DNA from: Cylindrospermopsis raciborskii Cr2010
GTDB taxonomy: Bacteria > Cyanobacteriota > Cyanobacteriia > Cyanobacteriales > Nostocaceae
Direction of reading: 5' to 3'
NCBI RefSeq assembly: GCF_003367075.2
Contig: NZ_CP065936.1
Span: 1,920,001 to 1,952,000 of the forward strand
Length of the DNA stretch: 32,000 nt
Below the pieces are notes generated by a model. That model saw only the letters and a program-made list of their open reading frames with translations, was not told the origin of the DNA and did not search any database. Within the stretch, counting starts at the first letter, position 1; every line of letters starts with the position of its first letter. Positions 2,395 to 20,335 of this stretch are shown one piece after another. The translations under genes and the position numbers were made by a program.

Positions 2395-2630
2395 AAGTAG
2401 GCTCTTTGAGGATAATCTGAATATAAACACTGAGAGAATAGTTCAGATGTTAACATTATTCATTGATTGGGATTATTGCATGCTTGGTCTTAAAAATTTA
2501 TCTAAAGGAAATTATAAGTCGCCTCGATCCCGAAGAATATTATATCGCTTTTATTGTCAAACCAGATAGTTTTTCTACTTAAGGGATAAGTTACTACATG
2601 ATTTAATGTTTCCCAATATAGTGGTAATGC
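2395..2630 (+). repeat. Internally deleted relic of the 8400..11464 cassette unit
   Basis: 2395-2508 matches 8400-8513, 2509-2581 matches 11171-11243 (inside the third cassette gene), and 2581-2630 matches 11408-11464. Both deletion junctions fall on short shared sequences: aagg at the first, and a single shared a at the second. Confidence 0.9.
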
Positions 2631-2774: not shown

Positions 2775-3890
2775 ATGGTTAAGACAGTAATATGTTCCGT
2801 AGGAACCAGTGCGGCAAAAGCGATCGGAAAACCGGGAGATCTCCTGAATTGGGTTAATCAACAAGAAAGCCGAGAAATCGCCGCCGAAAATATATTTCTC
2901 ACCTTTAGAGATAAGGAACCAATAGAAGCAAATCTTAGGGATTTATCAGCAGAAATTCACTCCCTAGTTAGAATTGGCATCGATAATGGATATAGAATTA
3001 TTCTCCTGGCTTCCCAGACCGAAGATGGTTACTGCTGCGCCAGCGCTATCGAGAAATATCTTAAATATTATTGGACTAGTATTGTTACTAAAGTTCACCA
3101 GGTGACGGGATTACAAGTTAATAATGCTGACCTTTTTCGCAGTCAGGGGGTAGTGGAATTTGTTCGCCATATTATTCGAGAAATTTATCAATATGGTTCG
3201 GAAAATATTATCCTTAATCCTACTGGTGGTTATAAAGCTTTAGTTCCTTATACCGTGCTACTGGGGATGTTAAAAGGGGTAAAGTGCGATTATATTTTTG
3301 AGCAGTCCACTACTCTCCTAGAATTGCCACCTTTACCCGTAGAATTCAAGCGATCGCAATTTGAAATCTACAAAGAATTATTTGAGGAAATCGAACGAGA
3401 AAGCAGCATTTCCCTCCAAAAATGGGAGGAAAAAATTTCCAGGCAAGAAAGAAAATTCTTAGAACCTTTGACGGAATTAGTCAACAACGAAATAACCCTT
3501 TCTGCGGTGGGTTTTTTATTTCTTGATGAGATTCGTTCTCCAGGGGTTTTAGTACCTTTTTTATCCAGAAAAGCGATCAATGATTGTTTCGATGATTTAT
3601 CCCAATTAGATAACTGTGATCCCTTCCGTTATTTAGAAAGGGTTGCTACTCATTATGATGAAACTATTCAACAAGCAGAACATATCAATGTTGGCGATGG
3701 TTTACGCTGGCTAAAACCAGGGCGAACAACTGATCGCTATCTAGTTTCTAAAGATCGTTGGCGATTATTAGTCTGGCGGGCAATTCGTGAGGATAAAGTG
3801 GGTTCAAATTACGCTCATAAAGTAGAAGTTAACTCTAAAAATAAACGCGCCCATTATCCCTTTCTCAGGATGGAATTTGTGAGAGAATAA
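2775..3890 (+). CDS. CARF-domain protein (APE2256/TIGR02619-like CRISPR-associated ring-nuclease/effector family) with a C-terminal RelE/ParE-like domain (Cami1-like architecture, tentative)
   Basis: 371 aa. CARF motifs present: N-terminal ICSVGTS, LSAEIHSL, and NPTGGYKALVPY (the TGGxK motif). The C-terminal roughly 90 aa (LRWLKPGRTTDRYLVSKDRWRLLVWRAIRED) resembles the beta-strand core of RelE-type mRNA interferases. Confidence 0.7.
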   Translation: MVKTVICSVGTSAAKAIGKPGDLLNWVNQQESREIAAENIFLTFRDKEPIEANLRDLSAEIHSLVRIGIDNGYRIILLASQTEDGYCCASAIEKYLKYYWTSIVTKVHQVTGLQVNNADLFRSQGVVEFVRHIIREIYQYGSENIILNPTGGYKALVPYTVLLGMLKGVKCDYIFEQSTTLLELPPLPVEFKRSQFEIYKELFEEIERESSISLQKWEEKISRQERKFLEPLTELVNNEITLSAVGFLFLDEIRSPGVLVPFLSRKAINDCFDDLSQLDNCDPFRYLERVATHYDETIQQAEHINVGDGLRWLKPGRTTDRYLVSKDRWRLLVWRAIREDKVGSNYAHKVEVNSKNKRAHYPFLRMEFVRE

Positions 3891-4171: not shown

Positions 4172-5002
4172 ATGAGTGAATTAACTGAAAAAATATCTTC
4201 GGTGCGTCATTATTTTGTGGATGAAGCAGGAGATCCTGTAATTTTTAATGGTAAAGGTAAGATTTTAATTGGATCAGATGGATGTTCTCATTTTTTTATA
4301 CTTGGTCTATTAGACGTTGCTAATACTGAATCTTTATCTCAAGATTTGGAAAATTTAAGAGCTAATTTATTAGCTGATCCATATTTTAAGAAAGTTCCTT
4401 CAATGCAACCTGAAAATAAAAAAACTGCTTTATATTTTCATGCTAAAGACGATATTCCTGAAGTGAGAAGAGAAGTTTTTAATTTGTTGCAGCGACATGA
4501 ACTCAAATTTTTTGCTGTGGTGAGAAGTAAAGATAAGTTACTTGAGTATGTTAGACAACGTAATCAAAATGACCCTGGTTATCGTTATCAACAAAATGAA
4601 TTATACGATTATTTGACGCGGCGTTTATTTAAGAATCGTTTACACAAGGATGATGAATATAATATTTGCTTTGCTAGACGAGGTACTTCTGATAGAACCG
4701 AAGCCTTCAAAGTTGCTTTAGAATCAGCTAGAGCAAAATTCGCTGAACAATGGGGTATTACCAGTACAGCAACTATTAATATAACTGCTAATATACCTCC
4801 CAATTCTCCAAGTTTACAAGCGGTAGATTACTTTCTGTGGGCTTTACAACGCCTATATGAGAGAGGTGAGGGTAGATATGTTGAGTTTCTTTGGTCAAAA
4901 TTTGCACTCGTGCATGATATTGATGACACAAAATTTGCTAGGTACGGCGTGTACTATACTCGTAAAAACCCTCTAACAGCCACAAAAATACCAGGGATAT
5001 AG
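4172..5002 (+). CDS. DUF3800-family protein
   Basis: 276 aa. It has the N-terminal HYFVDEAGD (DUF3800 DESG-like acidic motif) and the C-terminal SLQAVDYFLWAL (LQxxD motif). The gene is visibly more AT-rich than its neighbours. Confidence 0.6.
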   Translation: MSELTEKISSVRHYFVDEAGDPVIFNGKGKILIGSDGCSHFFILGLLDVANTESLSQDLENLRANLLADPYFKKVPSMQPENKKTALYFHAKDDIPEVRREVFNLLQRHELKFFAVVRSKDKLLEYVRQRNQNDPGYRYQQNELYDYLTRRLFKNRLHKDDEYNICFARRGTSDRTEAFKVALESARAKFAEQWGITSTATINITANIPPNSPSLQAVDYFLWALQRLYERGEGRYVEFLWSKFALVHDIDDTKFARYGVYYTRKNPLTATKIPGI

Positions 5003-5376: not shown

Positions 5377-5632
5377 GTGGTGGGGATATCCGGGGTGCTA
5401 CTATTCCCGTTTATGGCAATATTTAAGGGGAGCGATCGCATGGTTTGGGGATATTTTTTAAAAACCCCCCAATCCTCTCGAAGCAATGTTGAGTGGAGTA
5501 TCTAATCCAAGCGATCGCATTTCTTAACACATATTTAGATGCCCGACCTAATGATTGTTATTCTTTACTACTTGAAGTAAAATTAGTATCCACATTTAGT
5601 TGATTCATCGCGCAAATATACAACGCTAAGTT

Positions 5633-5851
5633 ATGTTGAAGCAAGAAGCACAATGGCTAGGAAAAATGATTTATTCTCTTGATCAAGATAGTATTTTTCC
5701 ATTATTAAATCTTGGAAGTTCCAGTCAAAACTTCCGAGAAAAACAACAACCTTGGATATATCAATTCTTGTTTAAACCTGCTCAGCAATCCGCTGTAGTT
5801 TTAATTCCCCACGCCCTGGGTATCCTAGAAAATGTGGAAATTGGGCTTTAA
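5633..5851 (+). pseudogene. Methyltransferase-like N-terminal fragment (copy 2)
   Basis: Protein sequence is identical to 1353..1571. Confidence 0.35.
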
Positions 5852-5896: not shown

Positions 5897-6526
5897 CTAT
5901 CCTTTCTCCGGATTGGTTAGTTTAATAACAAAATTTCAATACTTTCAACATAGCCAAATTAACTTCATGTCCCGCATCAAAGTGATGGTACTCAACAGGA
6001 ACTCCCAAGGATTGTGCAACCTGTTGGCTTTTAATTGCAGCTGAGAGGGGAACAATCTGGTCTTGGGTTCCGTGCATAATCAGAGTTGGGGGAACTGGCG
6101 TTTTTCCATAGTGGAGACTTGAGGATGTAAATAGCCACTCATGACTGCTAAACCGGCTAAGGGTAAGTTGAGACCCACATCTAAGGTCATGGCGCCACCC
6201 TGGGAAAATCCGGTCAAAATAGTTTTAGACAGGGGAATTCCTGTGGTGGTTGGTAGGGATTGCAACCAGTCTATTAACAATTGACGGCTTACTACTAGTC
6301 CTTCATACATTTTGTCGTCTCGTAGATCATACCATGCTCTACCATTATCGCTATAGGGATAGGGATAGGGGGCATTAGGAAGCAAAAATTCATACTCAGG
6401 TAGGTTGACATGGGGTAATAAGGATGCTACGTCCTCAGCATTGGCACCCCAACCGTGTAAGGTGACAATTAGTCCCAGTGGAGTTTTTGTGGTTTGGGCG
6501 GAAATTTTAATAACATCTAAGGTCAT
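5897..6526 (-). pseudogene. Phospholipase/carboxylesterase-family hydrolase, copy 2, disrupted by two frameshifting deletions
   Basis: The G-run at 6088-6092 has 5 G where copy 1 has 6 (1810-1815). A 2-nt deletion near 5937 corresponds to copy 1 position ~1658. The ORF 6080..6526 therefore ends prematurely (…RQFPQL*). Confidence 0.85.
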
Positions 6527-6631: not shown

Positions 6632-6847
6632 ATGTCTAAAACTATGAAGTGGCGAGTCATACTTGAACCCGATCCAGAGACCAGGGAATGGGGAATTTGG
6701 TGTCCAGAGTTGCCTGGATGCACATCTGCTGGTATCACACAAGAGGAGGCTCTTAACAATATACGGGAAGCCATTGAGCTTTATTTGCAGCCTGATAACA
6801 TTGAACTTTTACCTGGAGCATTAATCTGCGAGGTTATAGTCGGATGA
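6632..6847 (+). CDS. hicB: HicB-family antitoxin (UPF0150 fold)
   Basis: 71 aa. The segment W.VILEPDPETREWGIWCPELPGCTSAGITQEEALNNIREAIELYL is the typical HicB N-terminal domain pattern. Confidence 0.75.
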   Translation: MSKTMKWRVILEPDPETREWGIWCPELPGCTSAGITQEEALNNIREAIELYLQPDNIELLPGALICEVIVG

Positions 6848-8315: not shown

Positions 8316-8757
8316 TGTTTCCTAAAGTGTTCATAATGCTATTGTAACAGAGATAGTACCCATTATGTATTCATTTTACTATATTATGGAAATATTACTA
8401 AGTAGGCTATTTGAGAATAATTTGAATATAAACACTGAGAGAATAGTTCAAATGTTGACATTATTCATTGATGAGGATTATTGTATGCTTGAGCTTAAAA
8501 ATCTATCTAAAGGTAGATGCAATCGGATATTCTAATTAATTACTGTTTCATTGTTTACTATAACTGGAAGTTGCACTCCATTTCAAAATATGAAAATTTA
8601 TTCATTCTTGTGGTTTCCTCTTGTACTATCTAGTTTAAAGGAATGAAATCCCTGTGTAAAAACCAGAGATTTTTATGTCATGAAACCTCAAATTTAGAAT
8701 TGCTGTAAAATTGGAGACTAGCCCGATGAAAATCTATCAATCTGTTCAATCTTGGTT

Positions 8758-10170
8758 ATGAAAGCCAAATTTATTTTAAACTCACTCAAATCAGATCGAA
8801 GGGAATTAGACGTCAGTTTTCTCGTGGTTTCTGGGATTGGCTTAGTAATCACCCTAGCCATCTACGGTCTGCTATTTCCGATCAAAAATACTTTTATTGG
8901 GATTTTATTGTATGAGAGGGGATTCACTCAAATTCTCACGATTGCCTTTGCCGGAATTGTAGCGGCTTTAACCCTGCTAAAATTTTTTAAGCTTCAAAAA
9001 CAATCGCGAACTTTGGGGGAAGAACTAATTCCATCTGACATATCCCTTGACGATCCAACTAGCGATCAGGTCATCAATCTTCAACAGAATCTAGCTCAAG
9101 AGAAGAATGTATTAGCCCGTCGTTGTAGTCGGCTACTAGCCGTGTATATTAACTCTGGTAATCGTCAAATTGCTAACGAATTTTCTTTGGAAGATTCCGC
9201 TTTTTACCATAGTGCCTCCGAGTCTTCCTATACCATTCCGAAGATTTTAGTTTGGGCAATTCCCCTATTGGGATTTATCGGCACGGTGTTCGGTATTAGT
9301 GCTTCCGTGGGGGGATTTACAGGGTTTCTGGAAAATGCCGGCGATATCGACCAAATTAAACAGGGTATCGGTACTGTGACACAAGGATTAGCGATTGCAT
9401 TTGATACTACTCTTTTGGCTTTATTTATGAGCGTATTGGTGATGTTGCCCTTAGTGATGGTCGAACGTTTAGAATCCCGTCTGCTACTGGCGATCGATAT
9501 CTACATCAACGATAAGGTATTACCACGATTAAAAGATACAAGTAAAGGGAGCGAGACCATTAGCGAAGAAATGGTCGAACAAGCAGTAATAAAAGCTGTT
9601 CAACAAAACTTCCTTGCTCCTGAAACTTTAATCGAACCAGCCAAACATTATGCAGAACAAGCGGCGGTAGCATTAGCAAAAGGGTTCACTCAAGAAGTAC
9701 ACAGCATACAAGAAGCCATTACTCAAACAGTTCAAGAAATTCAAACTGTAAGGGAGAGGGTAACTAGAGAAAGTCAGGATTTTTCGACCTTTCTTGGTGA
9801 CCAGATAAAACTACAGCAAGGGCTAGTAAATCAGATTCAAACAACTGTCCAGGAGATTCATCGAAATCATCTAGCTGTGTCCGATGGATTTAGAGAACAA
9901 GCTCTAGTAGTTGGTTATAAACTGGAGGCAGCGGCGCAAGCCTTAGAACAAAGAATAAGCAGTTTAGAGAAATACGCGACCCAAATCAGTGAGATTGATA
10001 ATTTGCAGCGTAGTTTAGACAATAATCTCCGTAATCTCAAAGAAAAAGCCGTTTTGGAAGGAGTTTTAGGGGAAATTCAGACTAGCTTGGAGCGGTTAAG
10101 ACCAACGTTAGACCAACTGAATAAGCCGCGCCGGATTCTACTTTTAGAACAAGAAGATCAAAGAACTTAA
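8758..10170 (+). CDS. MotA/TolQ/ExbB-family proton-channel protein with a C-terminal coiled-coil tail of about 220 aa (ZorA-like architecture)
   Basis: The track ORF starts at TTG 8752; ATG 8758 is the more likely start. There are two N-terminal hydrophobic helices, then the channel core ILVWAIPLLGFIGTVFGI…GLAIAFDTTLLALFMSVLVMLPLVMVE, then a Q/E/L-rich heptad-like region running to the C-terminus. Confidence 0.75.
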   Translation: MKAKFILNSLKSDRRELDVSFLVVSGIGLVITLAIYGLLFPIKNTFIGILLYERGFTQILTIAFAGIVAALTLLKFFKLQKQSRTLGEELIPSDISLDDPTSDQVINLQQNLAQEKNVLARRCSRLLAVYINSGNRQIANEFSLEDSAFYHSASESSYTIPKILVWAIPLLGFIGTVFGISASVGGFTGFLENAGDIDQIKQGIGTVTQGLAIAFDTTLLALFMSVLVMLPLVMVERLESRLLLAIDIYINDKVLPRLKDTSKGSETISEEMVEQAVIKAVQQNFLAPETLIEPAKHYAEQAAVALAKGFTQEVHSIQEAITQTVQEIQTVRERVTRESQDFSTFLGDQIKLQQGLVNQIQTTVQEIHRNHLAVSDGFREQALVVGYKLEAAAQALEQRISSLEKYATQISEIDNLQRSLDNNLRNLKEKAVLEGVLGEIQTSLERLRPTLDQLNKPRRILLLEQEDQRT

Positions 10171-10173
10171 ATT

Positions 10174-10635
10174 ATGCCTAGAGCGATCCGTAGCCGACAG
10201 TCTATACAGATAGATTTATTTCCATTTTTATCGATTCTAGCCTGTACGATTGGCAGTCTTATTCTCTTAATTATAGTGCTTACTTCCGAGATTATCGGCA
10301 GCCAAAAGCAAGTAACAATTGTAGCTAAGAGTGATAATGGTTTAAATCGATCAAAACAGCCCCGTTATATCGAGTGTAAAGCCGATGGTGTAATTTTGCA
10401 TCCCGACCAAGTTTTGGTACCTTCCTCTGGTTTAGAAAGTCAGTTCTCACCACTCGGAATATTACTAAAGAAAATCGATCCCGGTCAAGAATATCTAATC
10501 GTCGTGGTCAGATCCGACGGCATCGATACCTTTAGAAGAGTCAGAAGTTTGATTGAGGGTAGGGGAATAGATATTGGTTATGAGCCTTTGGATAAAGATT
10601 GGAAGTTAAATATAAAATCAGAAATAAAAAACTGA
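10174..10635 (+). CDS. ExbD/TolR-like single-pass membrane protein (paralog 1)
   Basis: 153 aa, starting 3 nt after the upstream stop. It has an N-terminal TM helix (IDLFPFLSILACTIGSLILLIIVL) and a C-terminal block EYLIVVVRSDGIDTFRRVRSLIEGRGIDIGYEP that resembles the ExbD periplasmic domain. Confidence 0.6.
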   Translation: MPRAIRSRQSIQIDLFPFLSILACTIGSLILLIIVLTSEIIGSQKQVTIVAKSDNGLNRSKQPRYIECKADGVILHPDQVLVPSSGLESQFSPLGILLKKIDPGQEYLIVVVRSDGIDTFRRVRSLIEGRGIDIGYEPLDKDWKLNIKSEIKN

Positions 10636-10647
10636 CTGGACAAATAA

Positions 10648-11358
10648 ATGAGAAAACTAAGAAAGTACAATCATTCAAGTTTATCTGCAGGTAATCTAGA
10701 TTCGTTCCTTGACATCATGACCAATACGGTAGGTGTTCTCATGTTTGTCAGTTTATTTATAACTCTGGTAGCCGTGCAGTCAGGAACCACGATCCGAACT
10801 CCTCTAGTCTCTCAAACCGAAAAAAGTCCTCATCTTTTTGAGGTGGTAGATAACCACGTTAGTTATCTAGATACCGAGGAGATTTCTCGACAAATTAAGG
10901 ATTTTGTTAAAACCTTACCTACCTGTACAGAACCTATAGAGTCTTATTCCTACGGACTGGATCAATTAACGGTATACATAGAAGAACTGCGCCAATATAA
11001 AAGCTGTCTTGATGAAAAAGTCAGCAGATTTAGGGAATTTAGACCGCAAACAGAATCTTATCAAGTTCAATTAGTAGATATTGAATCATTTTCATGGCAG
11101 TACCAAAAACTTAACAAAAATATAGGAACATCTAACGAGCAGTTATCAGAAGCTGATTCTCAGTTTAAGGAAATTATAAGTCGCCTCGATCCCGAAAAAG
11201 ATTATATCGCTTTTATTGTCAAACCAGATAGTTTTTCTACTTACAGAAAGGCGAGAGAAATCGCTTGGAAAAAGGGATTTAATGTCGGTTGGGAGCCTCA
11301 AAAACTAGAGCAATTTATTATTCTTGGATCATCGGGTAGAAGTATCGGTATTCAGTAG
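10648..11358 (+). CDS. ExbD/TolR-like single-pass membrane protein (paralog 2, with an inserted middle domain of about 100 aa)
   Basis: 236 aa, after a 12-nt gap. The N-terminal LDSFLDIMTNTVGVLMFVSLFITLV matches the ExbD/TolR PxxDVxLVLL-type TM helix, including the Asp. The C-terminal DYIAFIVKPDSFSTYRKAREIAWKKGFNVGWEP is paralogous to the previous gene. Confidence 0.6.
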   Translation: MRKLRKYNHSSLSAGNLDSFLDIMTNTVGVLMFVSLFITLVAVQSGTTIRTPLVSQTEKSPHLFEVVDNHVSYLDTEEISRQIKDFVKTLPTCTEPIESYSYGLDQLTVYIEELRQYKSCLDEKVSRFREFRPQTESYQVQLVDIESFSWQYQKLNKNIGTSNEQLSEADSQFKEIISRLDPEKDYIAFIVKPDSFSTYRKAREIAWKKGFNVGWEPQKLEQFIILGSSGRSIGIQ

Positions 11359-11474
11359 CCTCCCCTACGAAAACCAATTTCTATCAAGTGATAAATAGCA
11401 TCTTCTCAAGGGATAAGTTACTATTTCCTACATGATTTAATGTTTCCCAATATAGTGGTAAAGCATGAGTACCC

Positions 11475-11840
11475 TTAAATTTCTTCATCAATCTCTGATT
11501 CTAATACGCACATTTTCAGAAGATCGGTTTCCCCAATTCGGGAATCAAAAACCCAACGGGCTTTCTTATCGTTATTATTGATAGTAAAAGTGATTAACTC
11601 TTGCTCTGCACGGTTAAAAAGAGCATCTCTTGCTGTACCTATGGAAACCAACTCGCCATTTAATGCCAATCCGTCACGGTTTAGCAGGTTCTGTTGATAT
11701 GATTGGCGCAGTAATAACAAGGATTGAAGCAAAGAGGATTTACCGGTGCTGTTTAATCCAGAAAGTAATGTTAGTGGTCTCAGGACAAAAGATTGATTTT
11801 CAAATGGCTTAAAATTTTCTAAGTTTAAGCTATTTAACAT
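11475..11840 (-). pseudogene. AAA15/ABC-like ATPase (DUF3696-type), truncated after about 120 aa
   Basis: The N-terminus, LNLENFKPFENQSFVLRPLTLLSGLNSTGKSSLLQSLLLLRQS, includes the Walker A motif. There is no Walker B motif or C-terminal domain. The stop lies 10 nt from the right end of the cassette unit (11464). The start overlaps the DUF262 stop by 7 nt. Confidence 0.65.
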
Positions 11841-12979
11841 GATAAAATCTCCCGAACTATTTGGTTAATTTGCTCAAACCTATATATAACCTGATCACTG
11901 GCTTGAGAAATGGATTTCTCAAAGTTGGCATCTGTTTCAATTTTTTTCATAAATGTTTTATTTAACAAGTCTTTATAATTTATCAATTTATCAATTTGCC
12001 CCGGTGTTAACCTACTCAAAATAACTGACCATGCTTCAAACAGAGATTTATTAACAGGGAACCTTGTTTTGCCATTTTTGGGAGGTTTACGGAAAGCGTT
12101 ACTGCTAAAAATGCTATCTGCTGCTCTCATGGATTTAATGAAGTCTCGTTTCATATCCTTGAGCCTAGTATCCTCTAAATTATTTAACTTCGACATGGCA
12201 CTATTTAAAAACTCATTTCTTCCTTGAGTATAATCATGATAATCTATCAACCAAAATGCAATAAAACCTATAATATATTCATGATCGTCCATTCTTTTCC
12301 TTCTTTTTTCACTGATGTTTATCAACTTCTTAAACTCTGCTAATTCTGAAAACTCCTTCAGAATCCTCAAGGACTTTCCAGGGTACATAGCTTGACGCAG
12401 CTCCTGGTTATTCAGTGATACACCACCAGTATTAATTCTTTGAAAAATATTATATTTTACTTCCGGGGGAGTTCCGGACTCAACTAAGCAGACTATTAAC
12501 TCTGTTTCTTCTATCCTTCTTTGGTGATGACGAGACAATTCATCATATTTTTTGTGTTCTAAATCCCTCAGAAATTGTAAATCAGTTAATCTCAGTTCCT
12601 GGTCAAGAATGAATTTTTTAAATGTATTAATTCTTTGAATACCATCTATCACTAACCACTTATCATCAGTAGTTGCATCCACATAAAATGCTGGAAGTGG
12701 AATCCCAATTAAAACAGATTCAATTAAACGACTCTTATTTTTGTCATTCCAAATGTCGGCATGACGTTGAAAATCAGGGGCTAAATCAATTTCGTCATGC
12801 TGAATTCTTTTTAGCAATATATCTATTGACATCATCTTAGTCTTGATCCTAATTTTTGTAGGATCAAACGGTTCTAGGTTTTCAATCTCATCCTCTTCAA
12901 CATCTTCATCACTGTCATCATATATCTCCCTAATTGGCAGTTCCATTTGTTGAGTGTTAATACCCTTAGTAATTGTCAT
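11834..12979 (-). CDS. DUF262 (ParB-like/GmrSD N-terminal type) domain protein
   Basis: 381 aa with an acidic N-terminus, then DFQRHADIWNDKNKSRLIESVLIGIPLPAFYV…VIDGIQRINTF, which is the DUF262 signature (QR…W…LI.S…P.P…DG.QR). I saw no DUF1524/HNH motif in the C-terminal half. Confidence 0.75.
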   Translation of the reverse strand: MTITKGINTQQMELPIREIYDDSDEDVEEDEIENLEPFDPTKIRIKTKMMSIDILLKRIQHDEIDLAPDFQRHADIWNDKNKSRLIESVLIGIPLPAFYVDATTDDKWLVIDGIQRINTFKKFILDQELRLTDLQFLRDLEHKKYDELSRHHQRRIEETELIVCLVESGTPPEVKYNIFQRINTGGVSLNNQELRQAMYPGKSLRILKEFSELAEFKKLINISEKRRKRMDDHEYIIGFIAFWLIDYHDYTQGRNEFLNSAMSKLNNLEDTRLKDMKRDFIKSMRAADSIFSSNAFRKPPKNGKTRFPVNKSLFEAWSVILSRLTPGQIDKLINYKDLLNKTFMKKIETDANFEKSISQASDQVIYRFEQINQIVREILSC

Positions 12980-12984
12980 AAATT

Positions 12985-13720
12985 GACGCTCCCATCGCTA
13001 AAAGCGAGGGATTCCCTGTTCATCCAGTTACCTTATCTAGGAGGCTTTCACCTAATAGACAGTGGGTAGTCTGTCCGAGGGCTTGAATTTCTGTCCGCCC
13101 GACAGTATTTGCTTTTTGAAGTATGTTTTTAGCGGCGTTTTCATCCCTATCCAAAACACAACCACAAGAACAAATATGTGTTCTTACAGACAACGTTTTC
13201 TTAACAATATTGCCACAAATAGAACATTGCTGGCTAGTATATTGTGGGTTTACCGCTATTACAAACTTCCCGTGTATTTTCCCAAAGTAGTCTAACCAAT
13301 CGGTGAACATTGACCAACTTGCGTCATTAATAGACTTAGCAAGTTTTCTATTTTTCACCATATTAAAAACCTTCAAGTCTTCATAAACTACCAAATCGTT
13401 AGATTGGATTAACGCTTTTGCTGTCTTTACAACAAAATCTTTACGTTGTCTGGAGACTTTTAAATGAAGACGGGCTACTTTTGACTTTTGTTTTTGACGC
13501 TTGTTGCTCCCCTTTTTCTTTAAAGTCTAAGGCATTTATTCCGAATAAACTGCCCTGTTCTAATAGCTTCCAGGATAGCTACTTGTTGCCTTTGTGTCGC
13601 TTTGATTTTAAACTCTATGACTCGCATTGAACCGACATCTCAATGTGTTACATTATAATTATATCATCTCATCGGTAAAACCGAGAGCCTTCAAGCAGAC
13701 ATTTTAGGTAAAAAGAATTC
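12985..13720 (-). mobile_element. Internally deleted IS200/IS605-family (tnpB-only) element
   Basis: It contains the tnpB remnant below. A short hairpin-containing end (ccCaTCGCtaaaaGCGAggg, 12990-13012) abuts the DUF262 start codon. The outer boundaries are approximate. Confidence 0.6.
13020..13627 (-). pseudogene. tnpB: TnpB remnant: N-terminal 35 codons joined out of frame to the C-terminal RuvC/zinc-finger part
   Basis: From ATG 13627 the translation is MRVIEFKIKATQRQQVAILEAIRTGQFIRNKCLRL*. The 3' ORF encodes …LIQSNDLVVYEDLKV…NPQYTSQQCSICGN…CSCGC…DRDENAAKNIL, which carries the RuvC-II and RuvC-III motifs and the CxxC…CxC zinc finger. Confidence 0.8.
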
Positions 13721-18281: not shown

Positions 18282-19067
18282 ATGGCAATTCTTGAGCAAG
18301 TTTGGCAATTTTGTCAGCGACAATTTTTATGTGTGATTGCATCTGTTTTGTTTTACACTTCCATCCCACTCCCCCATCTTCCAGGCCTGAAATTCCAAAG
18401 GGTAGCCCTTTTTGCTCCTGCTATAGGTTTGCTAATTGGTGCTATTTTGGGTCTTTTGGATATGCTGTTTGATTATTTAGGAATATCAGCATTAACACAA
18501 AGTGTTTTGATAGTCATTATTTGGATAGGGATCACAGGAGGTCTACATCTAGATGGTGCTATGGATACTGCTGATGGTTTAGCAGTGACTGATCCCCAAA
18601 GAAGATTAGAAGTCATGACCGATAGTGCTACGGGTGCTTTTGGTGTCATGGCAGCTCTGGCTATTTTACTGATGAAAATGGCTGCTTTGACGGATATTTC
18701 CCAAAATCGCTTTTTTCTTCTAATGGTTGCTTGTGGTTGGGGAAGATGGGGACAGCAATTGGCTATTTTCCAATATCCCTATCTGAAATCTACTGGTAAG
18801 GGAGCATTTCATAAACAGGCCATTCGTCATCAGATGGATTTATTGCCTAGTTGGGTTTTGCTTTTGGGTTTTAACTTGCTCACTTTGGCTTTTAACCAAG
18901 GTAACTTTGTTTTGGTTCTATTTACCCTAATTATTGGCAATATTATCTCCTTTATTGTTCCCGCATGGTTTAACCATAAACTGGGTGGACATACCGGTGA
19001 CACTTATGGTGCAGTGGTTGAATGGACTGAAGCTCTCTTCCTATGCTGTATGAGTAGTTTGACATAG
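18282..19067 (+). CDS. cobS: Adenosylcobinamide-GDP ribazoletransferase (cobalamin synthase)
   Basis: Polytopic membrane protein carrying [14 protein letters not shown] and [10 protein letters not shown], the CobS signatures. Confidence 0.85.
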
Positions 19068-19114
19068 GTAAGGTAGGGGATTATTAGACATCCCCCAGCC
19101 CTAAACCACATATA

Positions 19115-20335
19115 CTATGGTGCAAGTGCATTACCACGTAATAAACTGCCAATGGTCTTAGCCGTAATTTTTAACTGGGTGATTGGATTAGCTGGAACTA
19201 CGGTTTTATATAAATAGCTGTCAAAAGTCAGCTTTTGAACATCCATGTCATCACACATTTCTACAAATGCTTCTCTGGTAGCATCTGAGCGGTAGAACAC
19301 GGTTTGTAACAGGTCCAATACTTTATAGGTAAGTCCGTATTTTTTATCCCAACGCTTAATATAAAGTTTTAATTCCCTTTCACTAGGAATGCGCGCTCCA
19401 CTATTGGATATTTCTACAATAGTCTCCGCACACATTCTTCCAGATTTAGCAGCAAAGTAAATACCTTCGCCCGAGGATTTGGTGACGTAACCAGCAGCAT
19501 CACCTACTAAAGCAATTCGACCTACTACCCGACGTGGACGGGGATGTTCCGGTATGGGATGGGCTTCTACCTTAATGATTGTACCTCCAGCCAATTTTTC
19601 CGCTGCACGGGCGCGAATACCAGCCTGTAACTGTTTAATACTGGCTTTATTCACATGCATGGTTCCAGTACCCACAGCTACGTGGTCATACTTGGGAAAG
19701 ATCCAAGCGTAAAAATCTGTGGAAACATCATCTCCTACATACATCTCCGCTAGGTTGTTATAGTATGCCATTTTATCTTCAGGAAGACGAATTCTCTCCT
19801 GAAAGGCGATCGCATAATTATAGTCCCCAGCATCCATTTCTTTGGCAATACGGGAGTTGGCACCATCTGCACCAATAATTAAATCCACCTTGAGAGTTTT
19901 GGCCACGCCAACAGATCCACCCTCATTGTGATCAACATAATGAATTGTATAGGGGTCAGAATTATTATTAGGTATATCTAATTTATGCACAGTGGCATTA
20001 ATTAAGTTAGCACCCAATTTAGCGGCCCGGTTTCTTAAAAAACCATCTAGGACCTCTCTGCGACACATTCCTATATATTCTTCTTGGTTGATCAGATTGA
20101 TATCAACCTCCCGGTTAGAGGGGGAGATCATCTTCATATTCCGTACCCGACGGTCAATAATGTCCGCTGGTAGATCAAACTCACTAACCATACAAAGGGG
20201 GATAGCACCACCACAAGGTTTAGCATTATCCAACTTACGCTCAAATAAATAAGTTTCAATCCCTGCTTTAGCTAAAGTTTCAGCAGCAGATGAACCAGCT
20301 GGGCCAGAACCCACAACAGCAACTCGTAATGTCAA
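19115..20335 (-). CDS. chlP: Geranylgeranyl diphosphate/geranylgeranyl-chlorophyll reductase
   Basis: 406 aa. It has the N-terminal FAD motif VAVVGSGPAGSSAAETLAKAGIETYLFERK followed by KPCGGAIP, and the family-typical length. Confidence 0.85.
   Translation of the reverse strand: MTLRVAVVGSGPAGSSAAETLAKAGIETYLFERKLDNAKPCGGAIPLCMVSEFDLPADIIDRRVRNMKMISPSNREVDINLINQEEYIGMCRREVLDGFLRNRAAKLGANLINATVHKLDIPNNNSDPYTIHYVDHNEGGSVGVAKTLKVDLIIGADGANSRIAKEMDAGDYNYAIAFQERIRLPEDKMAYYNNLAEMYVGDDVSTDFYAWIFPKYDHVAVGTGTMHVNKASIKQLQAGIRARAAEKLAGGTIIKVEAHPIPEHPRPRRVVGRIALVGDAAGYVTKSSGEGIYFAAKSGRMCAETIVEISNSGARIPSERELKLYIKRWDKKYGLTYKVLDLLQTVFYRSDATREAFVEMCDDMDVQKLTFDSYLYKTVVPANPITQLKITAKTIGSLLRGNALAP

Follow-up and report, generated by a model that had tools for sequence, protein, structure and literature searches.

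What does a compact three-gene cassette for a stator-like membrane complex do in the midst of defence and mobile genes? The question is raised by positions 8758–11358 of a 32,000-nucleotide (nt) stretch of Cylindrospermopsis raciborskii Cr2010 (contig NZ_CP065936.1, forward strand, 1,920,001–1,952,000; hereafter the window). The original prediction, made from the letters of this stretch, read the cassette as a MotA/ExbB-like protein with a long coiled-coil tail followed by two ExbD/TolR-like paralogs, and proposed a Zorya-like or otherwise novel ion-driven system within a defence island. We find that the trio is a real, conserved and uncharacterised three-gene membrane system of cyanobacteria, that it is not a Zorya system, and that in the lineage studied here it moves horizontally. 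What it does for the cell is answered below more tentatively, with a role in envelope surveillance or defence as the leading hypothesis.

The three open reading frames (ORFs) were confirmed as described, all on the forward strand and packed with gaps of 3 nt between genes 1 and 2 and 12 nt between genes 2 and 3. Gene 1 (8758–10170) encodes the putative A subunit, a protein of 470 amino acids (aa) from an ATG, or of 472 aa from an alternative TTG start at 8752; gene 2 (10174–10635, 153 aa) encodes a B-type subunit, and gene 3 (10648–11358, 236 aa) its B-type paralog. A survey of the window and 102 fetched loci, 103 DNA sources in all, found the order gene 1–gene 2–gene 3 kept in 60 loci, 37 after dereplication, so that the arrangement is far beyond chance. 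Full-length homologs of all three proteins, about 40–57% identical, occur in Nostocales, Pleurocapsales, Chroococcales, Oscillatoriales and Chroococcidiopsidales, and the family is kept at about 45–55% identity across many cyanobacterial orders. The distribution nevertheless looks patchy, with no PCC 7120, 6803 or 7942 match among the matches listed. Clustering of all flanking ORFs revealed no other widely recurrent partner except a LapA_dom protein of 70–90 aa with two transmembrane (TM) segments, encoded directly 3′ of gene 3 in 16 of 69 locus groups (for example at 10657–10896 of locus L003, and likewise in 20 other loci). There is no LapA_dom gene in the window, and pairs of gene-3-like and LapA-like genes exist without genes 1 and 2. 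With its order kept in the 37 dereplicated loci and no recurrent partner save this protein, the trio is most likely autonomous.

The gene 1 protein matches, at 100% identity, a C. raciborskii protein annotated as ‘MotA/TolQ/ExbB proton channel family protein’. The channel-core motifs on which the prediction had relied are present, and the Pfam MotA_ExbB profile (PF01618) matches residues 151–232 with 24.4 bits, a marginal pass of its 22.9-bit cut-off; precomputed PF01618 matches are found on most gene 1 homologs. The membrane core (8818–9462, forward strand), delimited by hydropathy and by the helices of an AlphaFold2 model, contains four hydrophobic segments at residues 21–47 (TM1), 59–77 (TM2), 163–181 (TM3) and 217–235 (TM4), with a predicted cytoplasmic helical domain at residues 78–162 between TM2 and TM3. 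TM3 has the sequence AIPLLGFIGTVFGI and TM4 begins FDTTLLALF; residues G172, G175, T176, G179, D216, T217 and T218 are invariant in 60 homologs.

The core is followed by a predicted cytoplasmic helical tail (aa 245–470; 9490–10167, forward strand), recognised from heptad contrast, DSSP and homolog conservation. The heptad contrast of this region is 0.548, compared with 0.358 ± 0.029 in shuffled sequences, and the AlphaFold2 model (60 homologs; pLDDT 74.3) is wholly helical, with an unbroken helix at residues 328–451 of the tail, in agreement with the coiled-coil-like character proposed for it from sequence. The 60 homologs are almost all 459–492 aa long and retain the tail of about 225 aa in length and in several residues, including the C-terminal LNKPRRI.

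A Foldseek search of the Protein Data Bank (PDB) with the gene 1 model returned, as its top 46 matches, only chains of ExbB, TolQ, ZorA or MotA (probability 0.99–1.0), among them ExbB 5sv0 (E 1.8e-3), ZorA 8qyd, TolQ 9ddm/9ddn and MotA 6ysl. The TM-score normalised to the target (TMt) lies between 0.45 and 0.56 for ExbB and TolQ, the highest value being reached with TolQ 9ddm/9ddn. Since the solved A-subunit chains matched comprise 214–280 residues, gene 1 would be an ExbB/TolQ-sized core with about 225 extra C-terminal residues. The gene 1 family profile found nothing significant among PDB chains, coiled-coil noise swamping the matches, and the protein appears very distant in sequence from any solved A subunit. 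The predicted structure thus supports gene 1 as a stator-type A subunit of the MotA/ExbB/TolQ fold that extends into the cytoplasm as a long helical tail.

Genes 2 and 3 are matched by no Pfam, NCBIfam or PADLOC model, even at E ≤ 1. Each encodes one N-terminal TM helix, and comparison of the two family alignments with hhalign (probability 98.8%, E 4.8e-17) identifies them as paralogs, gene 3 aligning as a gene 2 into which about 80–90 aa are inserted, with a C-terminal block common to both. Of the claim that they are two ExbD/TolR-like paralogs, the paralogy and the single helix therefore stand, whereas none of the three profile libraries recognises either protein as ExbD. The TM helix of gene 2 spans aa 18–36 (FPFLSILACTIG). 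That of gene 3 carries the motif QNLDSFLDI.TNTVG, with the consensus N16-L-D/x-S-F-L-D22 ... T-N-T-V-G invariant in 61 homologs. Asp22 of gene 3 (codon 10711–10713) is invariant in these 61 sequences; at the same position gene 2 has Ser20, in at least 90% of 36 homologs, so a conserved TM aspartate is found in one paralog only.

For the soluble domain of gene 2, a periplasmic location and the element order beta-beta-alpha-beta-alpha-beta are predicted. In the AlphaFold2 model of gene 3, which has pLDDT >90 over the soluble domain, the insertion forms a long helix and the order becomes beta-beta-alpha-(insertion)-beta-alpha-beta, an arrangement that fits the periplasmic domain of ExbD and TolR. 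Two cysteines of the insertion, Cys93 and Cys120, are invariant in 61 homologs. An N-in topology with a periplasmic C-terminal domain is suggested for both proteins by the Arg/Lys-rich N termini that precede the single TM helix, and the periplasmic location is supported by a relative with a signal peptide that fuses gene-2-like and gene-3-like domains.

Are these proteins relatives of ExbD? A diverse 56-sequence profile searched against the PDB gave five ExbD/TolR chains among its 14 matches, at E 0.19–1.1 and all in one register. Against a manually entered sequence of E. coli ExbD, the broad profile reached an hhalign probability of 71.6% (P 3.5e-5), the gene 2 comparisons as a whole ranging from 37 to 72% (P 3.5e-4 to 3.5e-5); hhalign pairs gene 2 Ser20, the counterpart of gene 3 Asp22, with ExbD Asp25. 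Many gene 2 homologs are named ‘biopolymer transport protein ExbD’ by JGI. The family profiles of genes 2 and 3 found nothing significant among PDB chains, and Foldseek with the gene 3 model found no ExbD and no significant PDB match. We retain the ExbD/TolR label as a probable one, the evidence for it being remote but consistent. A CARF-like function of gene 3, to which Foldseek matches with Cam1 (E 0.19) and SSO1393 might have pointed, was rejected because these matches lack significance (E 0.19–0.35 over about 50 columns) and a periplasmic location is predicted for the domain.

The gene 2 family profile, searched against 1.84 billion representative proteins, detected 3057 clusters (50% identity) at E ≤ 1e-3 and 1143 at E ≤ 1e-10. 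Members of 280–890 aa carry two to four copies of the soluble domain (P0394, P0398, P0402 and P0412), and some of the multi-domain members have long coiled coils and Pro/Gly-rich linkers. When ten of the superfamily proteins were scanned with Pfam, eight had no match and two had unrelated DUFs outside the repeated domain. The B subunits of the trio thus appear to belong to a large uncharacterised superfamily that lacks a Pfam model.

The trio of the window is 88% identical in DNA (84–91% in protein) to a trio on plasmid p1 of Microcystis aeruginosa NIES-2481 and only about 52% identical in protein to other Nostocales trios; we therefore conclude that it was recently transferred between orders. 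The gene row on p1 comprises an N6-methylase, a nucleotidyltransferase, SLATT, a PLD-SNF2 helicase, the trio, DUF559 and NUDIX, with a type III-B Cmr module about 25 kb from the trio. On Microcystis-type metagenome contigs, a WYL regulator and a divergent type I-D cas operon (Cas10d, Cas7d, Cas5d, Cas3d) lie 5′ of the trio. A further copy is carried by Anabaena cylindrica plasmid pANACY.03, and one adjoins a relaxase gene; only two plasmids in PLSDB carry the trio. In Cylindrospermopsis, Microcystis and Aphanizomenonaceae the trio is a horizontally mobile accessory module in defence-rich DNA. A phage origin was ruled out, no relative being found among 2.9 million viral contigs.

Two side observations concern the company of these copies. 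Chroococcidiopsis PCC 7203 retains gene 3 alone, amid transposases, toxin-antitoxin pairs and type I restriction-modification genes. A deoxynucleoside kinase gene paired with a viperin-family radical SAM gene occurs 3–6 kb 3′ of the trio on A. cylindrica pANACY.03 and in Anabaena sp. UHCC 0187 (18503–19916 in locus L021 and 9429–10930 in L007).

The trio is also associated with type III-B CRISPR-Cas genes. In at least nine Nostocales loci the same order recurs on one strand: Cmr2, Cmr3, Cmr4, Cmr5, Cmr6, an optional Csx1 of about 490 aa, a protein of 505–510 aa, and the trio. The carriers include A. cylindrica (pANACY.03), Cuspidothrix, Dolichospermum, one metagenome contig, four assemblies (L108–L111) sharing a gene 2 protein that NCBI names Sphaerospermopsis kisseleviana, and Nostocales assembly L104, whose gene 2 protein is named Richelia sinica and in which the relaxase gene lies 3′ of the cassette. 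The 505–510-aa protein 5′ of the trio (6390–7922 in L001, 8400–9917 in L011, 6936–8468 in L104, 6663–8186 in L108) has no Pfam match and is assigned by PADLOC to CARF1--CARF_HEPN (E 5e-255). Its identity between loci, 74–90%, tracks neither the Cmr module nor the trio, and the locus is therefore a three-part mosaic. A comparison of L108 with L109 illustrates this: the trios are 99.5–100% identical, Csx1 74% and Cmr4–6 28–39%, and a DNA identity of 99.3% begins 245 nt 5′ of gene 1.

Three Cmr lineages are found upstream of closely related trios, and the downstream genes differ between genera. C. raciborskii and A. cylindrica have a common Cmr lineage (48–57% identity) together with trios that are 51% identical; in C. 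raciborskii this lineage lies 5–10 kb upstream of the trio. Cmr, Csx1 and the trio recombine independently and yet the order persists, which points either to selection for the linkage or to an integration hotspot that the modules share. Recurrent adjacency to type III modules of different lineages is seen within Aphanizomenonaceae only and is absent in most other lineages. Cmr genes lie within 10 kb of four of the 37 dereplicated trio loci of the first sample, all of them Nostocales; in Tolypothrix an XRE regulator, a kinase and a transposase take the position of the Cmr module. No CARF or SAVED domain was matched in genes 1–3 by Pfam or PADLOC.

The surroundings of the trio in the window are those of an island with a history of rearrangement. 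In C. raciborskii the order runs from a type III-B module that lies shortly before the start of the window through adh_short, Abhydrolase_2, HicB(A), a TnpB fragment, the trio, a truncated AAA_15 gene, NsnA/DUF262 and another TnpB fragment; housekeeping genes start at about 13.7 kb in the window. The defence and mobile neighbours listed in the original prediction (DUF262, AAA15, CARF, hicB, tnpB) were confirmed by Pfam and PADLOC. They comprise a CARF-RelE-like gene (2775–3890, forward strand; Pfam Cas_APE2256, PADLOC CARF7--CARF_RelE_like E 1.6e-171), which encodes a cyclic-oligoadenylate-type effector of the type III CRISPR ancillary class, and a HicB-like gene (6632–6847). A TnpB fragment (Cas12f1-like TNB, PF07282; 7628–8140, forward strand) lies 5′ of the cassette, and a second one, also found by Pfam, marks the other boundary of the island (13020–13394, reverse strand). 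On the reverse strand downstream of the cassette lie a truncated AAA_15 ATPase gene (11475–11840, Pfam) and a DUF262/GmrSD_N gene identified as NsnA (11834–12979; Pfam, PADLOC NsnA E 1e-126). Because AAA_15 is reduced to its first 121 aa, we regard the two as a decayed candidate Nsn defence system. A DUF3800 gene (DUF3800_VII; 4172–5002) was also identified by domain match.

A second copy of the cassette once stood in the window. At 2395–2630 (forward strand) direct repeats of 90–97% identity and a three-way alignment reveal a scar in which sequence equivalent to 8400–8513 (5′ of gene 1) is followed directly by 11167–11243 (about 77 nt towards the 3′ end of gene 3) and next by 11414–11464 (3′ of gene 3). 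The locus was therefore duplicated, after which one of the copies was stripped of genes 1 and 2 and of most of gene 3. The same segmental direct duplication is seen in the pairs 1098–1397 and 5378–5677 (99% identity) and 1658–2110 and 5936–6387 (100%), and together with deletions it accounts for the two partial copies of the Abhydrolase_2 gene (1617–2003 and 5922–6526); a splitting of that gene by insertion was rejected on the evidence of the repeats and the three-way alignment. A promoter-like sequence 5′ of gene 1 (TTGACA-18-TATTGT, 8455–8484, forward strand) falls within the upstream segment that was duplicated along with the cassette; it was found by consensus scan only, which is not evidence of function. 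The CARF-RelE and DUF3800 genes sit between the scar and the intact cassette and are missing at the equivalent position in C. raciborskii CP091284 (locus L014), where a type III-B Cmr module and then a 709-aa S1-domain protein are encoded just upstream of the point at which the window starts.

Which function do these observations favour? We put first, at somewhat less than an even chance, that the trio acts in envelope surveillance or defence as an autonomous proton-driven motor of the 5:2 type. This is the leading hypothesis because the trio is mobile and, in this lineage, embedded in CRISPR-Cas and defence DNA. Under it, gene 1 would form a pentameric ring, in which each subunit would have four TM helices and would keep its N terminus, its loop domain and its tail on the cytoplasmic side. 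The centre would be taken by genes 2 and 3 as a pair, probably a heterodimer, in which gene 3 alone bears the proton-binding aspartate; their ExbD-type domains would lie in the periplasm, where gene 3 adds a helical module that is probably disulfide-bonded. Proton flow would turn or switch the gene 1 ring, and the gene 1 tails of about 225 aa, conserved in length, may pass motion or a signal into the cytoplasm. We infer that such a device could serve as a minimal Zorya-like sensor, or dissipate the proton motive force (PMF), in defence against phages or plasmids. The analysis establishes the gene order, the fold of gene 1, the paralogy of genes 2 and 3, the conserved residues, the genomic surroundings and the horizontal transfer, whereas stoichiometry, ion flow, topology and any coupling to CRISPR are inferred. 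A defence role, likewise, is a lead and not a result.

Several observations weigh against the defence hypothesis, chief among them the contexts of the family outside this lineage. In the 150 nearest neighbours surveyed (34 dereplicated loci, with the top 25 recurrent families listed), the commonest Pfam families are mostly housekeeping ones, namely M16 peptidases, DAO, protein kinases, DegP-type proteases, histidine kinases and RuvA; a minority (Uma2, RAMPs, NgoPII, N6_Mtase and TnpB) are of defence type. Most copies outside Nostocales, those of Pleurocapsales among them, stand beside housekeeping genes such as M16 peptidases, RuvA, PBP and TrmFO, the trios of Myxosarcina and Oscillatoria lie amid ordinary genes, and related genera retain the local synteny, as defence genes seldom do. 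The claim of a defence-island cassette therefore holds for this lineage, where the DNA around the trio is mobile and rich in defence genes, but not for a family that is widespread and has many copies amid housekeeping genes. Moreover, no defence model matches any trio protein at threshold, CARF/SAVED and nuclease domains are missing from the trio, which also lacks a consistently attached effector gene, and the supposedly essential aspartate is replaced in gene 2 and in many relatives. The linkage to Cmr genes, confined as it is to one Nostocales family, could reflect a shared integration hotspot.

Relatives that live apart from the trio point in the same direction. A solo gene-3-like gene stands between DUF3177 and hisF, a position conserved on three contigs, which suggests a core-genome paralog working without an adjacent A subunit. 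It encodes 219 aa with 32–34% identity, lies at about 9300–10660 in L085, L086 and L102, and belongs to the row thiE, methyltransferase, GCV_T, Nif11, CofD, DUF3177, gene-3-like, hisF, phosphoketolase. Solitary gene 1 paralogs of 620–680 aa (41–53% identity) occur on Merismopediaceae/Synechocystis-type contigs (8001–9872 in L018 and 8001–9908 in L022); they lie near infC and a gene for a 294–297-aa protein (a TPR protein in L022), with no gene 2 or 3 adjacent.

The same facts lend some credit to a housekeeping role, in which the trio would be a Ton/Tol-like motor that energises some process of the outer membrane or periplasm, for instance the homeostasis of lipids or lipopolysaccharide, the import of nutrients or iron, or the upkeep of envelope integrity. 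Its partner would then be unlinked or unrecognised, and the island location secondary. We hold this to be rather unlikely, though it comes next after the defence hypothesis. Housekeeping neighbours and conserved synteny in many orders, and solo gene-3-like genes in core contexts, are what it would lead one to expect; the gene 1 fold is closest to TolQ/ExbB (TMt up to 0.56), the B subunits belong to the ExbD/TolR type and lack an OmpA domain, and annotation pipelines name the homologs ExbB/TolQ and ExbD. The LapA_dom protein that comes after gene 3 in 16 of the 69 locus groups, part of which lack genes 1 and 2, fits it as well, as does the iron-induced Synechocystis operon sll0477–sll0479 (PMC4195498, PMC8634477), which may or may not be of the same family. 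What the housekeeping role leaves unexplained is that no tonB, tolA, TonB-dependent receptor or pal gene adjoins any copy examined, that the cytoplasmic tail of gene 1 has no counterpart in ExbB/TolQ, and that the distribution of the family looks patchy, with the three model strains named above missing from the matches listed. Plasmid-borne and recently transferred copies, and the deletion of the second copy in the window without replacement, are likewise hard to reconcile with it. The absence of Ton or Tol-Pal linkage, which the original prediction had stressed, extends well beyond the cassette: no tonB, TonB-dependent receptor, tol-pal or OmpA-like gene was found among the scanned window ORFs of at least 90 aa, and no tonB, TonB-dependent receptor, tolA/tolB/pal or OmpA-type gene in the annotated homolog contexts or among the top 25 recurrent neighbour families.

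A dedicated ancillary of type III-B CRISPR-Cas, acting with the CARF-HEPN protein (Csx1) either as a membrane effector that collapses the PMF once the type III system fires or as an envelope sensor that primes this system, is less probable still. It would account for the Cmr–Csx1–trio order across three unrelated Cmr lineages and differing downstream flanks, for the Cmr lineage 5–10 kb upstream in C. raciborskii and for the Cmr module on Microcystis plasmid p1, and the membrane effectors CorA, Cam1 and Csx28 set a precedent (PMC12669027). The trio, however, contains no cyclic-nucleotide sensor domain; a breakpoint separates Csx1 from gene 1, the trio bringing its own upstream region; a Cmr module within 10 kb is the exception (4 of 37 loci in the first sample, all Nostocales) and none is adjacent in the Tolypothrix and Microcystis copies; and the trio is not among the published type III accessory families (PMC6546367). 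Equally improbable, in our estimate, is the more elaborate proposal that joins this idea to the defence hypothesis, namely an unrecognised proton-driven rotary 5:2 defence motor with a B-subunit family of its own, which would have become a fixed type III-B accessory in Aphanizomenonaceae and whose A-subunit tail would couple envelope events (phage adsorption or DNA entry) or potential collapse to Csx1/Cmr. To a surface-motility motor of the AglRQS type, driving gliding, we assign hardly any probability. The subunit layout is identical, one A gene and two B paralogs, as the original prediction had pointed out; the resemblance ends there, with no Glt-like, gliding or other motility genes nearby in the contexts examined and with the trio found in non-gliding unicellular Microcystis and on plasmids. 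AglR, unlike gene 1, is not known to have a long tail.

Flagella, Ton/Tol transport, gliding, type 9 secretion and Zorya defence are all known to be driven by 5:2-type motors, and each new branch of these motors has shown a new use of the proton gradient. The features that set the present branch apart are the A-subunit tail of conserved length, the asymmetric B pair of which one member has the aspartate, and a B-domain superfamily that Pfam does not model. Plasmids and islands of the toxic bloom-formers Cylindrospermopsis, Microcystis, Dolichospermum and Cuspidothrix carry the trio, usually close to CRISPR-Cas loci, and it keeps its place beside type III-B operons even where the Cmr module has been exchanged. 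Should it prove a defence or CRISPR-ancillary device, it would represent a new membrane arm of cyanobacterial immunity, relevant to the control of blooms by phages; should it instead energise the envelope, it would add a motor independent of Ton and Tol to the cyanobacteria, in which little is known about how the envelope is powered.

How does the trio compare with systems already described? No description of the family was found in searches of the literature on CRISPR-associated MotA/ExbB proteins, on cyanobacterial Zorya-like systems, or under its family names, and it is not mentioned in PMC6546367, PMC12669027, PMC12204202 or PMC12505986; recent surveys note only many ‘generic ion transporter’ homologs with appended domains and unknown function. 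Likewise, in keeping with the earlier view that the cassette corresponds to no existing system model, none of its proteins reaches the threshold of a defence model.

Like Zorya, the trio has a MotA-like A subunit whose cytoplasmic tail is long and helical, and in this lineage it sits in a defence island. ZorA models are the sole defence models that match gene 1 at all, and ZorA structures are among its top fold matches. The scores are low: NCBIfam antiphage_ZorA_2 gives 13.8 bits against a cut-off of 100, and the best PADLOC match, ZorA3, gives 22.8 bits (E 8e-6), mostly within the coiled-coil tail. The gene 1 tail is about half as long as that of ZorA, for which the PADLOC profiles have 692–1063 positions. 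Zorya-type A subunits carry extra cytoplasmic beta-structure (PMC12505986), whereas the cytoplasmic part of the gene 1 model is free of beta-strands. Genes 2 and 3 are ExbD-like and ExbD-sized rather than MotB/OmpA-like, and no peptidoglycan-binding domain such as that of ZorB was matched in them. No ZorC, ZorD, ZorE, ZorF or ZorG gene stands beside the trio, the neighbours being TnpB, HicB, NsnA, AAA_15, CARF-RelE and DUF3800. Membership of Zorya is thus ruled out by the ZorA scores, the type of B subunit and the missing effector genes, the tail being the only feature in common that would define it.

The arrangement of one TolQ-like and two TolR-like paralogs encoded together recalls AglR–AglQ–AglS of Myxococcus. 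The trio differs in its lack of a motility context, in the long tail of gene 1 and in its hosts, cyanobacteria that include non-motile ones. A three-gene operon of similar layout is known within the cyanobacteria: Synechocystis sll0477–sll0478–sll0479, described as an ExbB-like protein and two hypothetical proteins, is induced 6.7-fold by iron stress, is called exbB/exbD3/exbD4 and has been assigned to iron uptake (PMC4195498, PMC8634477). Going by its description, the operon may or may not belong to the same family; the gene 1 relatives noted on Synechocystis-type contigs are the solitary paralogs of 620–680 aa.

Canonical Ton and Tol-Pal systems are ruled out, as no TonB, TolA, TonB-dependent receptor or Pal gene was found in any context examined. 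Gene 1 is twice as long as ExbB or TolQ, has four hydrophobic helices instead of three and carries its cytoplasmic tail in addition; ExbD and TolR are here replaced by two B paralogs, one of which lacks the aspartate and the other of which adds the cysteine-containing insertion of about 80–90 aa, and neither is matched by the Pfam ExbD model (PF02472). The likeness to ExbB–ExbD and TolQ–TolR lies in the fold of gene 1 (Foldseek probability 1.0), in the PLLG..GTV.G and TT motifs of its last two TM helices, and in B subunits made of one TM helix and a small beta-beta-alpha-beta-alpha-beta domain, predicted to be periplasmic, without an OmpA domain. Asp22 of gene 3, moreover, aligns with Asp25 of ExbD in what is a remote alignment.

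The accepted CRISPR ancillary class of membrane effectors, represented by CorA, Cam1 and Csx28 (PMC12669027), offers a last comparison. The trio differs from these proteins in having no CARF, SAVED or other nucleotide-sensing domain and in that most of its copies have no CRISPR neighbour. In Aphanizomenonaceae, where it directly follows Csx1, it resembles them in encoding integral membrane proteins at the accessory end of a CRISPR-Cas operon.

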